A DNA stretch of 64,000 nucleotides from Antedon mediterranea (Eukaryota > Animalia > Echinodermata), in NCBI RefSeq assembly GCF_964355755.1, contig NC_092672.1, positions 7,200,441 through 7,264,440 on the forward strand. The letters are read 5' to 3'. The number at the start of each line of letters is the position of its first letter. Position 1 is the stretch's first letter. Under the pieces are notes generated by a model. The model saw only the letters and a program-made list of their open reading frames with translations, ran no database searches and had not been told where the DNA came from. Below, in pieces: positions 2,391-61,530 of this stretch. Made by a program: the position numbers and the translations under genes.

Positions 2391-2598
2391 AATTCACTAT
2401 TGGTAATCCTTGGCCACAGTGCCAAAAGACATAAAATAAAATAAAAAATAAAAAACACATCTTCGCATGTGTATAATCCCAGTAGCCTACATAGGCCTAC
2501 TCTGGAACCGTGTACACTGGGATTATACACATGCGCAGATGTGTTCATTTCTTGATTGCTGTCTTTTTTTTGTTCGACTTTTACACTATTGTGCTTAC

Positions 2599-2796
2599 CC
2601 ATTTATCATTTTCTACGCTGGTTCCTGATAAACTTCGGCTATGTGTTCCCACTACTAAAATTTGTGGTTTTTTCACTTTCATGTCTTTATCTTGTTTCTG
2701 CGACTCCCCATCGGGGATTGCGTACGTATAAATTAACTTCATCCAGTACTTTATTACTTCTACATTTGTCATGTTGCACGTCATATCTTGGTGGTC
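2599..2796 (-). CDS. ROCO paralog 1, Roc GTPase exon j (G4 region)
   Basis: rc translation DHQDMTCNMTNVEVIKYWMKLIYTYAIPDGESQKQDKDMKVKKPQILVVGTHSRSLSGTSVENDKW. Acceptor tcttaag/, donor /gtaagc. 198 nt. Confidence 0.6.
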
Positions 2797-3100
2797 CTTA
2801 AGAAAAATAAATCATAGTATTTTCTGTGTGTGATGACAATAATACACTCTGTAGGCCTACAGTATTCAAACGCAAGCCTAATTAATTAACGGATGAAAAA
2901 ACAAGTAAAACTTGTGGCTTCCATTAGGACGCAATGCAAGAACGTAACCGTAACGCAATTGACCAATCAGTGCGAGTAACTTATCGCTTTTGATTGACTG
3001 GAATGTATTTTCAAATTAGAATGGGTAGATAATTTTGTATTGTATAATTTTTGTAATACAAATTTATCATAATATAGGCATATACGCCAATACAAAATAC

Positions 3101-3205
3101 CTTTTTTACCGTGGATGATCTTGCCTCAATAGAATTAGCCTTATCATACATTCCTTCCTTCAAATTAAATGTTATCACGTAGACTGCTTCACTCGTCAAA
3201 AATAT
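3101..3205 (-). CDS. ROCO paralog 1, Roc GTPase exon i
   Basis: rc translation IFLTSEAVYVITFNLKEGMYDKANSIEARSSTVKK. Acceptor ctag/, donor /gtattt. 105 nt. Homologous to paralog 2 exon 21085-21186. Confidence 0.55.
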
Positions 3206-3642
3206 CTAGTTAATAAGACAACAACGTTTAAACTCTCAGTCCAGTTTATTTATTCAAAATATAAGTAAAACCTATAGGCCTAGTTGGAGATACCAAGTTT
3301 TTTACATTATTTACCATAGGCTTTACGTACACGTAACACGTAGGCCTAATGATAACAGGGAGCTTTCGATTTGCGACTCCTGGACCTGGTTGACATGACG
3401 TAGTTCGGTCGTCGATCGTCTCGATTTGCAACGACCGAGACCGACAACCAAACTACGTCATTAATTCATTGTGCACATGCGCATATATTGGGACATGTGT
3501 CCTCGCCTCCACCTCAACACATTTTTGATGGTTTTTAGATCAAGGAGAAGACCGACGACACATCGATTGACCTGACCTAGGTTGGTCTTCGCAAATCGAA
3601 AGCTTCCCAAACTATCAGATGCTGCAATACAGGCCTACTTAC

Positions 3643-3813
3643 TCGGTGTGTAATATAGTACAACGGCTGGCCTGCAAAGTCCCATATGTACGTAATGTCT
3701 TCATCAGCAAACATATTTGTATCTCCCTTCAATTTGTTAATGATTCGTTTTTGCATTTCAGAAGAAAGTTTCTGATTTGATTCATTAATTACACAATCCT
3801 TCTCCAACAAAAC
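3643..3813 (-). CDS. ROCO paralog 1, Roc GTPase exon h (switch II / G3 DxxGQ)
   Basis: rc translation VLLEKDCVINESNQKLSSEMQKRIINKLKGDTNMFADEDITYIWDFAGQPLYYITHR. WDFAGQ is the Roc G3 motif. Acceptor aaacag/, donor /gtaagt. 171 nt. Confidence 0.65.
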
Positions 3814-4510
3814 CTGTTTATCTTCAACTAAAAAACATAAATTCGTAACTTATTAAACAAAACACTAAACAGAAAGGCTCGGATGAGACAAAACTGGAAT
3901 ATTTTCAAAATCTGCTTAGAAAAATGTCATTTTTATTAGGCTTAATTATATACACACATCTGTAGATACATAAATGTTAAATTAAAAGCTAGTGGACATA
4001 AACATGTGATTTTTTTAAACTATAACCCGTAGTACCGTCAGTTTTTTTTTATTCGCAACTAAGATATACTGCTATTTGTGTCCATGGATACATTTTTTCA
4101 CTATACATTATTAGTTAGGCCTACCTTTGTTTTGATTTAGTCTAAGCTGTTGTATTGACGACACGGTATTCTGTGAATAAAAATTAGTTAAATGTTACTC
4201 TCATTTATAGGCCTATAACATGAATTAAAGACCCTTCACACCTGTTCCGCCACGGTTCCGGTCCGGCGCCGGCAACTCACATCGAACTTCATGTTGCGTA
4301 AATTAAGTACTTTAAAATTTCTTTAATATTTCTATTAGGCCTACTATTAGAAATAAACAAAATACGTGAATACTTCTCTATCATCTTTTGCCAATATCAT
4401 TCTTTTAAAATAACACACAATCATGCGATACTGTATGTTATTTAGTATTTAGGCCTACTTTTTCTCTCGACTACAATTCTTTCAATCTAGTTAATATCAT
4501 ATCGTATTAC

Positions 4511-4603
4511 CTCTGATGTTGCACCTTGGTTTGTAGCAGCGATTTGTTGTGATGTCACTTTTGTTTTCAGTTTCAACTCTTTTTCTATTTCTGTATCCTT
4601 TTC
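4511..4603 (-). CDS. ROCO paralog 1, acidic linker exon g2
   Basis: rc translation EKDTEIEKELKLKTKVTSQQIAATNQGATSE, no stops, phase 0-0. Acceptor aaatcag/, donor /gtaata. Positionally equivalent to paralog 2 exon 21697-21787. Confidence 0.4.
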
Positions 4604-4839
4604 CTGATTTTCGATACGTACATAATAAAATTGTATAGGCGCTATACTATTTCATTTTTATGAAATCAATATTGTCTAATTTTGATAATGGAAATTAAAA
4701 GAAATATATCTGACATGTTTATTATGAATCAGCTGCAGGTTAAACAGAGCATTTAAGCTTTGTTTGATCAATAGATATTTGTTGAGTATCTCACCCTCAC
4801 AGAAGTATGTTTTTAATCTAAAGAATTCCGTAATTTTAC

Positions 4840-58610: not shown

Positions 58611-58821
58611 GTGAGTTCTAGTGTCCATTTACACTGAGAATCAATTATTTCACATTCAATTACATGTACATCTGATGTCATCCAGATATATGTTTTTTCT
58701 GTAAAACAAACCATCTTTGATTTGTAAATTATCTCAAATCTATCCACACACCCAGATACAAATATTTTTTCTGTATTACGTGCTAGTCTTTATTAATTTT
58801 GTAAATGATTTCTTTTGACAG

Positions 58822-58935
58822 ACTTCAGATCATTACATTGCTGTATACATGTTGCCTAAATTGATGACGCTTAACGGCCAGGACATTGACTTTCGTGGAA
58901 CTATAGACAATATGGAAGCAGAATTAGCTACTAAG
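58822..58935 (+). CDS. LRR protein exon 2 (LRRcap)
   Basis: TSDHYIAVYMLPKLMTLNGQDIDFRGTIDNMEAELATK. The Y.....LP.L..L.G..I cap motif. Acceptor tgacag/, donor /gtaaga. 114 nt. Confidence 0.65.
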
Positions 58936-59707
58936 GTAAGATGAAACATTTTAAAAACATCCAGGCTATCCAAACCAAAATATTTATTTATCCTAAATTT
59001 GAATGATAACAAATTGTAATACTACTGTACATGTATGTGTATTTTTCTTTTGAGTAATTAACAGCAACGTCCTCTGAAGTAGAAAATCTTTTTGGACATT
59101 GCTGGTTCACAGGGTTCTCACCAGCATGTCTTGTCGCGCCAGCCCACGCATTTCATAATGAGGTCGGAAAAAAATGCAGTTTGTAAACAACCCTATGATT
59201 TTCTTTTTGTGCGGTAACAAGATGTGGAAAATTAATGAGTAAATTTTGACTGGCGGAGGACCAAGTTGTAAATTACTAGGAAGCATTATTTATAAATAAA
59301 TACTACAGTACAGAAAGAAAATACTGCAATTTTACCTACGAAGTAGCTTCGTAGATAGAACGTAGGCTACGTTGTTGGCTTCGTAGGTTCCATTGTTTGG
59401 CTTCGTAACCTCAATAAACAACTTTCAATGAGCTACGTTCTGAACTTCGTAGGGAAATCGTAACCTAAATAAACAACCCTACGATGTTCTTAGTGAAGTA
59501 AGGTGTGAAATTAATGTGTTAAATTTAATTGGCGGAGGACAAAGTTGTAAATTAATAAAAAATAAATAATATTTTTTAATCGTAATATTTTCCTTCGTGC
59601 GTGTTTACCTACTCAACGGCGAATATAAATATAAATTTCCCACGAAGTATAATAAGAGAGACACGATCCAACACAGGTGAAACGCAACGAACAAGCCAAC
59701 ATAAACA

Positions 59708-60480
59708 TAATATAGCGAACGTCCCATCCAGAAACGATGCCGAGAAAAAAAGATCGTAAACAATTCATTCTAAATATAGCATCAGGACGTTCAATCGGTC
59801 GCTCAAAAAGACTGCCGGCAGAAGACCGTAATTAATACAGACCTAGTTTTTTTTTGTTGGTCACATGGCATGAAACGCGATACTCTCTGCTTACCGCAAT
59901 CTCTCACATGTTTTTTTTACTCAGTACGAGCTCTACGAGAGGGTGGCTACCGTCTGACGACGATAAAACAGTAATTAAGATCGTGTACCTGGATTTTGTG
60001 TCACATGACATGAAACATAATACTCTCTCTAAACTGCTCAGCTCACATGTTTTTCCCCTCCAAATTCTGGTCGGGCCTTTTTCTTTATACATGTCGGAAT
60101 CATTTTAAAAGGCCTATTTATGTATGTTAAATCTTAATATGGGATATATATTTATTTTGCATATATTTTGTTGGTGTCCTAGCCTAGGTGTCGTTGTTTT
60201 TATAATTCGCGAACCCAACAAGGTAGAAATAAATTAAATAATTTATAGTGTAGGCCGCCGAAACAGGCTAGGCCTAGCCTCGACTCTCTCTACGTGAGCT
60301 GAGGTCCACCGGCCCGATGTTGTTTCGTCGGCGGATTTCCGTCCAAATTAGGATAACCGATGCGTAGGGCGGCTACAAAAATTGACCTACTAATCTTTGT
60401 AGGATTTTAATTAGCAAACAATACATTGTTTGTTTGCATTGTCCATGCTTCTACGAACCACCCTACGATCGAGGCGTAGC
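59708..60480. repeat. Intronic ~0.75-kb repeat unit, copy 1 (second copy 60826-61530), with internal sub-repeats (gtgtcacatgacatgaaacg...atactctct twice)
   Basis: 59708-60480 aligns with 60826-61530 (e.g. ccagaaacgatgccga...ctaaatatag...cagacctag...ttgtccatgcttctacgaaccaccctacgat). Confidence 0.6.
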
Positions 60481-60489
60481 CTAGATTTC

Positions 60490-60655
60490 ATAACAATACA
60501 TCGTAAGCTACGAACAATACATCGTAGGTAGGAGAGAACAATACATCGTAGGCTACGAACAATACATCGTAGGAGAGAACAATACATCGTAGGCTACAAA
60601 CAATACATCGTAGGCTACAAACAATACATCGTAGGAGAGAACAATGTCCTACGTT
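60490..60655. repeat. ~21-bp tandem repeat (aacaatacatcgtaggctacg / ...gtaggagag)
   Basis: Direct reading, ~8 units. Confidence 0.8.
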
Positions 60656-60825
60656 CTACCTACGATCTACCTACGAAAGCCTACGCGTAGATACGAAGCA
60701 GTAATTTCTTTCTGTACTGTATTTTTAATCGTAGAAATTTCCCACGGTAGAGAGGCACGATGGCACTTACTCCATTGTGAACCTCAATTAACTAGTATGG
60801 TAGGCTAGGCCACCAAGTTCTAAAA

Positions 60826-61530
60826 ATAATATAGTCGATCCAGAAACGATGCCGACAACAACAAAAGATCGTTGAAATTCTAAATATAGTATCAGAACGT
60901 CGATCGCGCAGACCTAGATTTTGTTTGGTCATATGGCAGGTGCGGCCGGCCTGGAAACGCGACGAAGTTCGTGTACCTAGATTTTGTGTCACATGACATG
61001 AAACGCAATGATACTCTGGTACTCTCTCTCTAAATTTAACTGTTCCAACCACACATCGCACATGTTTTTTTCACTCAAAATCCTGGTCTGGTCGCGTAGC
61101 TACCGAATACTAGGCTAGGGCCATTTTCTTTACACAGTTACATGTCGTAATAATTGAATAGAATAGGCCTATGTTAAATCTTAACATAAAATATATTGAT
61201 TTTGCATGTATTTTTTTTGTGTTGACGTCGGTGTATTTATAATTCGCTAAGCCAAGGTAGGATTAAATTAATATAGCGTAAGAGGCCGCCGAAACTTGAC
61301 TCGACTCCGATGTCAAATCGGCCAACGATGTCATCTCGTCCGGCTAAATTAGGCTAACCAGTGCATAGGGCGGCTAAAAAATGTCGTCTCCTAGCATAGC
61401 CTAGGTAGGATTTTAAGGTGTCGTCGATTTTAATTAGTGAACATTACATTGTTAATTTGCATTGTCCATGCTTTTTCTAAAGGCGATGACAATGGTGTTT
61501 ATTAACCCTATACGAACCACCCTATATGAT
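60826..61530. repeat. Intronic repeat unit, copy 2
   Basis: See 59708-60480. Confidence 0.6.

Follow-up and report, generated by a model that had tools for sequence, protein, structure and literature searches.

The canonical footprint of Sleeping Beauty is TAC(A/T)GTA, the bases retained by described Tc1/mariner families are CA/TG or CAG/CTG, and the termini of plant Stowaway elements read CTCCCTCC... In cyanobacteria, the 8-bp palindrome HIP1 (GCGATCGC) occurs about once per kb amid unrelated flanks, inside genes too, with a patchy distribution; its spread is attributed to methyltransferase-associated substitution or conversion. Tc1/mariner elements duplicate a TA dinucleotide, and their staggered excision leaves terminal nucleotides as 3' overhangs that nonhomologous end joining turns into footprints (PMC7827188); in PHIS transposons (ISL2EU and PIF-Harbinger), the terminal inverted repeats (TIRs) usually begin with GG, and ISL2EU duplicates AT in an A-AT-T target (PMC4482050). 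Here, we describe a 64-kb stretch of the genome of the feather star Antedon mediterranea (contig NC_092672.1, positions 7,200,441 to 7,264,440; hereafter the window), in which the palindromic 8-mer TAGGCCTA is enriched far beyond expectation. We favor the reading that these sites are footprints which a cut-and-paste transposon with TA target duplications left on excision and which have built up to a very high density, although we regard the case for and against it as about evenly balanced.

The window holds 35 TAGGCCTA sites (Table 1), whereas 100 dinucleotide-preserving shuffles average 0.50 and never exceed 3; for the core AGGCCT, 50 copies stand against an expectation of 6.4. When palindromic 8-mers are ranked by over-representation in the window, TAGGCCTA is far ahead at 75-fold, with the runner-up at about 4-fold. 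An earlier note on this stretch, made from its letters alone, had claimed the over-representation, and the claim stands up to the shuffles. Its list of sites was essentially right, but several coordinates were 1 to 11 bases off (10904 for 10893, 35957 for 35965, and 36785 for 36794) and four sites (1176, 34621, 60269, and 62234) had been overlooked. All 35 sites have the form TA-GGCC-TA, i.e., a duplicated TA around a short insert, and the closest spacing between two of them is 56 nt. Head-to-tail copies with a period of 6 (TAGGCCTAGGCCTA) number 0 in the window and 2 in the crinoid Anneissia japonica, and the window sites do not form a (GGCCTA)n microsatellite. All Antedon counts come from this one 64-kb window, to which the syntenic Anneissia locus was added. 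No Rfam family is present in the window, and no description of the motif was found in the searchable literature on this 8-mer, on AGGCCT over-representation, or on genome-wide footprint k-mers.

The spectrum of variants is consistent with a motif that was created whole and not by drift, in that substitutions lie at background level and length variants are enriched. Copies with a substitution at one of the inner six positions number 15 (11.5 expected), next to the 35 perfect sites; the count of one-mismatch neighbors that the earlier note had called for, run on the window, thus finds these inner neighbors neither depleted nor enriched. The outer bases of the palindrome are looser, and the inner six are invariant. 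Among variants in the length of the center, the 7-mers TAGGCTA and TAGCCTA occur 25 times in the window against 5.1 expected, and the 9-mers TAGGGCCTA and TAGGCCCTA occur 6 times against 0.17, five of these being independent events. The 7-mers show a 4- to 5-fold excess in both crinoids and in the major vault protein (MVP) locus L003, one of about 2-fold in ENA assembly ERZ25072999, and none in genomes that lack the motif. Tandem arrays of a 21-bp unit (AACAATACATCGTAGGCTACG) and scattered copies of CGTAGGCTACG at 59361 to 60676 are the source of several TAGGCTA 7-mers, and part of the 7-mer excess is therefore not independent.

A direct view of the change at TA is offered by a miniature inverted-repeat transposable element (MITE) of about 470 bp with TIRs of about 48 bp, of which the window holds two copies that differ at exactly both motif positions. 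In the clean case, copy 1 reads ACGAG-TAGGCCTA-TAGTT where copy 2 reads ACGAG-TA-TAGTT, a 6-bp indel; in the second, the CGC-TA-CGT of copy 1 corresponds in copy 2 to CGC-TAGGCCTA plus 29 nt of repetitive filler. A single-TA "empty" counterpart was thus found in both of the two informative comparisons, which lie within one MITE pair. The 6-bp indel would most naturally be read as a gain, because 35 unrelated contexts cannot all stem from motif-bearing ancestors. The MITE itself has TA target duplications, an A-TA-T target, and termini GGGAGG...CCTC(C/T)C, and it is a candidate for the type of source element, to which the TA + GG and CC + TA junctions may link the scars. It resembles Stowaway-like MITEs in its TA duplications, TIRs of about 48 bp, length of about 470 to 500 bp, and A-TA-T target, but differs from them in its GGGAGG...CCTCCC termini. 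A scan for TIR elements with TA-GG...CC-TA junctions returned only the internal repeats of a foldback element in the window and nothing in L003, L004, L006, or L008 to L013; the MITE with GGGAG ends escaped it, since a terminus of one copy has TCTA and the other copy is cut short.

If the sites are excision footprints, each TAGGCCTA would be a small insertion scar that turned TA into TA-GGCC-TA. The agent would be a Tc1/mariner-like, TA-duplicating DNA transposon with inverted ends beginning GG(C/G) and ending (G/C)CC: its insertion would double the TA, staggered cuts at excision would leave two or three terminal element bases on each flank, and end joining would give TA-GG-CC-TA. With 3-nt GGC overhangs, self-complementary GC pairing would yield TAGGCCTA, and full overlap with a central mismatch would yield TAG(G/C)CTA. 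Such a scar would be palindromic because the element ends are inverted repeats. As scars persist while the element only moves on, they would accumulate where a 6-bp insertion is tolerated (introns, intergenic DNA, and 5' regions) and not in coding exons, and many scars alongside few donors, or none, in 64 kb would involve no contradiction. Repeated hits in favored regions would produce clusters and, in Anneissia, the period-6 runs. We infer both a transposase as the maker of the 6-bp indel and the element family responsible. No transposase gene was found in the window; in another feather-star genome, DNA transposons are the largest repeat class, at 34.7% (PMC13079724).

Of three options raised by the earlier note (a protein-binding or insulator-like motif, a preferred target-site footprint of a cut-and-paste transposon, and a mutational or repair bias), the cut-and-paste footprint is the best supported because of the TA-versus-motif paralogue comparisons, the TA + GG-CC + TA anatomy, the TA-flanked GGG...CCC TIR element, and the patchy distribution among genomes; the "preferred target site" part of that option falls, and a proposed scar of excision at TA takes its place. 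The sites are like Tc1/mariner footprints (Sleeping Beauty, Tc1/Tc3) in their doubled TA, the few bases between, palindromic or near-palindromic form, unrelated flanks with a weak symmetric target preference, and, perhaps, heterogeneous junction length, but the bases retained here would be GG/CC (or GGC/GCC), and the motif occurs once per 1 to 2 kb as the top over-represented 8-mer at the locus. Termini starting GG(G) are shared with ISL2EU and PIF-Harbinger elements, whose duplications are AT, TWA, ANT, CWG, or TNA, whereas here they are TA. The novelty would lie in which bases are retained and, still more, in the scale: one site per 1 to 2 kb, the leading k-mer signal of the locus, found in two feather stars and patchily in other genomes. 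Scars of the ISL2EU and Harbinger types are absent, with ATGGCCAT, TTAGGCCTAA, and TTAAGGCCTTAA each observed 0 times in the window, and so are those of the piggyBac/Sola type; a telomere-like junction was rejected on the same 0 count of TTAGGCCTAA.

The flanks of the window sites have almost no mutual similarity by self-BLAST. Within ±70 bases, base composition is biased only at −1 (purine) and +1 (pyrimidine) (P = 6e-8, window and L003 pooled), and the lack of flank conservation that had been claimed is thus borne out save for these two positions. Such a symmetric R-TA-Y preference is as expected for the target of a dimeric transposase. A fixed downstream element like that of nematode PIWI-interacting RNA promoters was not found, there being no base bias out to ±70 nt. 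Direct or inverted repeats flanking the sites, suggestive at 7210, at 2492, and at L003 position 2217, proved no commoner than at random TA sites. Coding open reading frames (ORFs) make up 25% of the window yet contain none of the 35 sites (P = 3.5e-5), in agreement with the intronic or intergenic location previously proposed. The sites are also clustered (chi-square P = 5e-4), with 20 of them within 1176 to 12726 and none in 23084 to 34620. The exclusion from exons, the intergenic and 5' preference, the clustering, and, in Anneissia, the period-6 runs and (TAG)n-embedded motifs all fit the footprint reading.

Comparison loci from other genomes were fetched through their proteins (Table 1). 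The signal had been called genome specific, which is too narrow, as the enrichment is found also in Anneissia japonica and in two ENA assemblies from marine animals. The MVP proteins of L003, L004, and L009 are about 85% identical to one another and 76 to 80% identical to that of Antedon; these genomes are about equally related, yet they include motif-positive and motif-negative ones, so the trait is patchy among related genomes. The top three enriched palindromic 8-mers of L003 are all of the form TA-NNNN-TA (TAGGCCTA, TACCGGTA, and TACATGTA). The second of these occurs there 4 times against 0.12 expected; in several ENA loci, TACATGTA is enriched 5- to 13-fold and CTGTACAG 14- to 23-fold.

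Between Antedon (window 48959 to 64000) and Anneissia (L014), the gene order MDH-DUSP-ALKBH4-LRWD1 is kept, the ALKBH4-like exon has its nearest match in Anneissia (75%), and there are short conserved noncoding blocks (e.g., window 52007 to 52129 and 57314 to 57704). No orthologous noncoding TAGGCCTA site is conserved between the two, the noncoding DNA around the sites being unalignable; the sole alignment that spans a motif is a coding exon, in which the Anneissia motif differs by substitutions. Anneissia also has motifs embedded in a (TAG)n microsatellite, a position that they could have reached by insertion alone, along with mixed arrays and period-6 overlaps. In intron 1 of Anneissia ALKBH4, 241 bp are duplicated in tandem (L014, 10999 to 11262), and each copy carries two TAGGCCTA sites 15 nt apart. 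A general footprint signature was also looked for in 74 small indels that distinguish paralogous loci within other genomes, and nothing convincing emerged.

Several observations weigh against excision footprints. The TA-versus-motif comparison rests on one paralogous pair, and two copies do not prove gain or loss; the MITE copies are 15 to 20% diverged, whereas most scars look young; and in the roughly 230 kb scanned, not one element proved to have exact TA-GG...CC-TA junctions at its two ends. In ERZ25072999, four paralogous loci at 93 to 96% identity show no TA/motif indel, their sites being either common or different by substitution. To our knowledge, GG(C) termini are atypical of described Tc1/mariner families, and a transposon-footprint density of one per 1 to 2 kb has never been reported; GG-initial termini with a TA duplication match none of the described families that we checked. 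The flank preference is unlike between the crinoids (R..Y in Antedon versus C..G in Anneissia). Within the window, 7-mers and 8-mers differ in where they lie (Fisher P = 1.5e-6), so the 7-mers are not simply alternative products of the same events, and the one-sided variants NAGGCCTA and TAGGCCTN, which the model does not predict, occur 12 times against 2.3 expected, three of them in coding sequence. Finally, Antedon and Anneissia have motif clusters in corresponding divergent promoter regions, those of MDH/DUSP and ALKBH4/LRWD1; these clusters adjoin conserved noncoding blocks, but the arrays themselves do not align.

It is this last point that keeps alive the alternative that TAGGCCTA is a selected palindromic binding site for a dimeric protein (an insulator, promoter, or architectural factor, e.g., of BED or THAP type), a prediction that we consider doubtful but the strongest of the rivals. 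A perfect palindrome with invariant inner bases and looser outer ones would suit such a site, as would the position of five window sites (34621, 37496, 51193, 58145, and 62234) within about 400 nt upstream of first coding ORFs and that of 20 of the 26 Anneissia sites no more than 1.25 kb from an annotated gene start. Real binding sites, however, show a spectrum of substitutions, and here near-consensus substitutions are at background while variants with spacing changed by ±1 nt are enriched. Nor is it a regulatory pattern to have 20 sites in 11.5 kb of intron and intergenic DNA of one gene and just one in the introns of the neighboring paralogue. The setting of motifs inside (TAG)n in Anneissia, the absence of the motif from genomes related to the positive ones just as closely as the latter are among themselves, and the lack of conservation of individual sites between Antedon and Anneissia outside one coding exon also speak against binding, and an origin by 6-bp indel at TA would still require a separate mutational source.

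A sequence-specific insertion or repair process other than transposon excision, for example a nuclease of the host that cleaves TA, with fill-in that is templated or biased to G, or a mutational bias in which a GGCCTA hexamer is seeded and then slips, would account for a change at TA that is a 6-bp gain or loss, for length variants with one to three G and one or two C between both TAs, and for the period-6 overlaps and mixed arrays of Anneissia. The 29 nt of repetitive filler at one site are typical of error-prone end joining, and no matching intact transposon turned up in the scans. We nevertheless think this process unlikely: insertion of a fixed tetranucleotide by a host process is without known precedent, slippage cannot give rise to an initial unit, and tandem copies with a period of 6 are absent from the window, and the patchy distribution among related genomes suits an invading element better than a host enzyme.

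Decidedly unlikely, in our view, is that the scars, instead of being the slow debris of an ordinary transposon, come from a dedicated process of very high rate and sequence specificity, at work in crinoids and a handful of further marine animals, which could take two forms. One would be mass or programmed excision of TA-bounded elements, by analogy with the removal of internal eliminated sequences in ciliates, in which case somatic assemblies would show the scar alone, always perfect since it would be remade in each generation. The other would be a eukaryotic counterpart of bacterial highly iterated palindromes, kept by a site-specific enzyme. The few substitution-decayed copies, the absence of a donor with exact junctions, and the density of one per 1 to 2 kb are compatible with both. 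Like HIP1, TAGGCCTA is a perfect 8-bp palindrome with unrelated flanks and a patchy presence among related genomes; unlike HIP1, it has no coding site among 35, its neighbors are not depleted, and the one resolved difference is a 6-bp indel.

That TAGGCCTA marks the one conserved part, the core, of a dispersed and strongly degenerate family of MITEs or short interspersed elements is highly improbable and, for the window, largely refuted, as flanks in the window, L003, and Anneissia share nothing beyond ±1 base and random TA sites are flanked by direct or inverted repeats at least as often. It finds some support elsewhere: in L009 to L012, three sites per locus lie within one repeat family with conserved flanks, and in the ENA contig L007 a motif at 417 to 424 lies in frame (Tyr-Arg-Pro-Thr) near the start of a long interspersed nuclear element (LINE) ORF and is present in all five full-length members of that protein cluster, hence part of the LINE consensus there. 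An assembly or sequencing artifact has a negligible chance of being the cause, given enrichment in independent assemblies (the window, GCA_011630105.1, and two from ENA) and none in three sister ENA assemblies with the same contig naming, sites common to paralogous loci, and the exclusion of sites from exons.

If the sites are excision scars, crinoid genomes would preserve, at the resolution of single bases, a record in which cut-and-paste events could be counted by the hundreds of thousands (extrapolated from one per 1 to 2 kb), and from which transposition rate, target choice, local hopping, and germline double-strand-break repair could be measured in a nonmodel deuterostome. Footprints, which are usually deemed negligible, could then be the dominant k-mer signal of an animal genome, and scars would be a sizeable class of indel mutation near promoters, by rough estimate a few per cent of the point-substitution input. 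If a protein binds the motif instead, the motif would serve as a promoter or architectural element that is particular to the lineage and unusually dense. On either reading, TAGGCCTA is a simple marker that parts some marine-invertebrate lineages from their relatives and is cheap to test.

Genes were mapped by reading ORFs and by Pfam domains, and their positions are listed with the motif sites, variants, MITE copies, site densities, and comparison loci in Table 1.

Table 1. Motif sites, variants, elements, and genes of the window, with regional site densities and comparison loci
Feature	Coordinates	Strand	Remarks
TAGGCCTA site	1176..1183		Intron of ANK-Roc-COR gene A
TAGGCCTA site	2492..2499		Gene A intron; TAGCCTA 2 nt upstream; in loop of 19-bp inverted repeat
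TAGGCCTA site	2852..2859		Gene A intron
TAGGCCTA site	3275..3282		Gene A intron
TAGGCCTA site	3341..3348		Gene A intron
TAGGCCTA site	4116..4123		Gene A intron
TAGGCCTA site	4208..4215		Gene A intron
TAGGCCTA site	4336..4343		Gene A intron
TAGGCCTA site	4450..4457		Gene A intron
TAGGCCTA site	7210..7217		A-B intergenic; between two 37-bp direct repeats
TAGGCCTA site	7745..7752		A-B intergenic
TAGGCCTA site	7807..7814		A-B intergenic
TAGGCCTA site	10255..10262		A-B intergenic
TAGGCCTA site	10358..10365		A-B intergenic
TAGGCCTA site	10436..10443		A-B intergenic
TAGGCCTA site	10893..10900		A-B intergenic
TAGGCCTA site	11536..11543		A-B intergenic
TAGGCCTA site	11630..11637		A-B intergenic
TAGGCCTA site	12020..12027		A-B intergenic
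TAGGCCTA site	12719..12726		2 nt past stop codon of gene B Death-domain exon
TAGGCCTA site	23076..23083		Gene B intron; variants TAGGACCTA and GAGGCCTAGGCTA within 70 nt
TAGGCCTA site	34621..34628		In MITE copy 2, at edge of 35-bp indel; copy 1 has CGC-TA-CGT
TAGGCCTA site	35965..35972		MVP/LDLa-trypsin intergenic
TAGGCCTA site	36021..36028		MVP/LDLa-trypsin intergenic
TAGGCCTA site	36794..36801		In MITE copy 1; copy 2 has ACGAG-TA-TAGTT, clean 6-bp indel at TA
TAGGCCTA site	37496..37503		About 360 nt upstream of first LDLa ORF
TAGGCCTA site	43219..43226		Intron of LDLa-TSP-trypsin gene; GAGGCCTA 17 nt upstream
TAGGCCTA site	44672..44679		8 nt into intron, past GTAAGT splice donor (CAG/GTAAGTA-TAGGCCTA)
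TAGGCCTA site	45168..45175		Downstream of trypsin gene
TAGGCCTA site	45677..45684		Downstream of trypsin gene
TAGGCCTA site	51193..51200		Upstream of MDH; TAGGCCCTA 12 nt upstream of site
TAGGCCTA site	58145..58152		6 nt upstream of LRWD1-like LRR ORF
TAGGCCTA site	60269..60276		LRWD1-like gene intron
TAGGCCTA site	61164..61171		LRWD1-like gene intron
TAGGCCTA site	62234..62241		LRWD1-like gene intron
9-mer length variant TAGGGCCTA	6591..6599
Further 9-mer length variants	38864 and 40836; 51173; 52248; 57169		38864 and 40836 are one event, in both copies of a segmental duplication
Composite TAGCCTA-GGGCCTA-GCCTA block	57164..57182		ALKBH4/LRWD1 divergent promoter region
MITE copy 2	34434..34935	-	TA, GGGAGGTTTCGCAA... 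48-bp TIRs ...TTGCGAAACCTCTC, TA; ends begin GG and finish (C)C
MITE copy 1	36648..37100	+	TA, GGGAGTTTTCGCAA...; right terminus truncated
Gene A, ANK-Roc-COR	exons 701-6158	-
Gene B, tandem paralogue of gene A	Death domain 12731-13099; reaches 25053		Broken up by LINE
Major vault protein (MVP)	27977-34258	-
LDLa-TSP-trypsin gene	37865-44908	+
Mitochondrial MDH	48959-50834	-
Dual-specificity phosphatase (DUSP)	53121-54395
ALKBH4-like	55343-56965	-
LRWD1-like gene	from 58158
Site density, gene A introns			1.65 per kb
Site density, A-B intergenic region			1.67 per kb
Site density, MVP/LDLa intergenic region			1.4 per kb
Site density, gene B			0.08 per kb
Site density, MVP gene body			0 per kb
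L014, Anneissia japonica (NCBI GCA_011630105.1)			Syntenic LRWD1-ALKBH4-DUSP-MDH; 26 TAGGCCTA in 22.4 kb, 0.29 expected
L003, ENA ERZ25069859			MVP locus; 16 TAGGCCTA in 20.4 kb
L009-L012, ENA ERZ25072999			Four paralogous MVP loci of 20 kb each; 4-7 TAGGCCTA each
L004 and L005, ENA ERZ22147071			0 TAGGCCTA
L008, ENA ERZ24894575			0 TAGGCCTA
L013, ENA ERZ25069870			0 TAGGCCTA

Other repeats were noted in the window. An intron of gene B contains an intact non-LTR retrotransposon ORF (14679 to 17798, plus strand; 1,039 amino acids) with endonuclease and reverse transcriptase, 99% identical to an Antedon mediterranea protein at NCBI; it is free of TAGGCCTA, which fits a young insertion. This match, with that of the ALKBH4-like exon to Anneissia, identifies the window as nuclear DNA of a crinoid. 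The foldback or Mutator-like element at 8209 to 9879 has inverted subterminal arrays of a 16-nt unit, CCTAGGACAACTACCC, at both ends and is bounded by a 10-bp direct duplication, TTTCTAGAAC (8199 to 8208 and 9880 to 9889). A second family of TIR elements, with GCTCTGTCTACACTATCAAAC in common, is represented by a copy of about 1.4 kb that overlaps the 3' part of the MDH gene region (48403 to 48539 and 49669 to 49804) and by a 140-bp hairpin-like copy in a gene A intron (5308 to 5446). Close to gene B, on its downstream side, lie 11 copies, 99% identical, of the 29-bp tandem unit ATAATTACTATTCTTACGGCTACTATTGT (12202 to 12518). The LDLa-TSP-trypsin gene has an internal duplication of about 2 kb with LDLa exons (39134 to 40306 and 41130 to 42078), and each LDLa duplicate is followed by arrays of a 35-bp tandem repeat, TCATGTTCTTATCGCATTCTTTTTAATTACACTTT (39989 to 40288 and 41986 to 42631), in which one reading frame stays open. 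The 7-mers TACAGTA and TACTGTA, which have the form of the canonical Tc1/Sleeping Beauty footprint, are about 3-fold over-represented in the window (40 against 12.5 expected) and 1.6- to 3-fold in seven other loci, TAGGCCTA-negative ones included.

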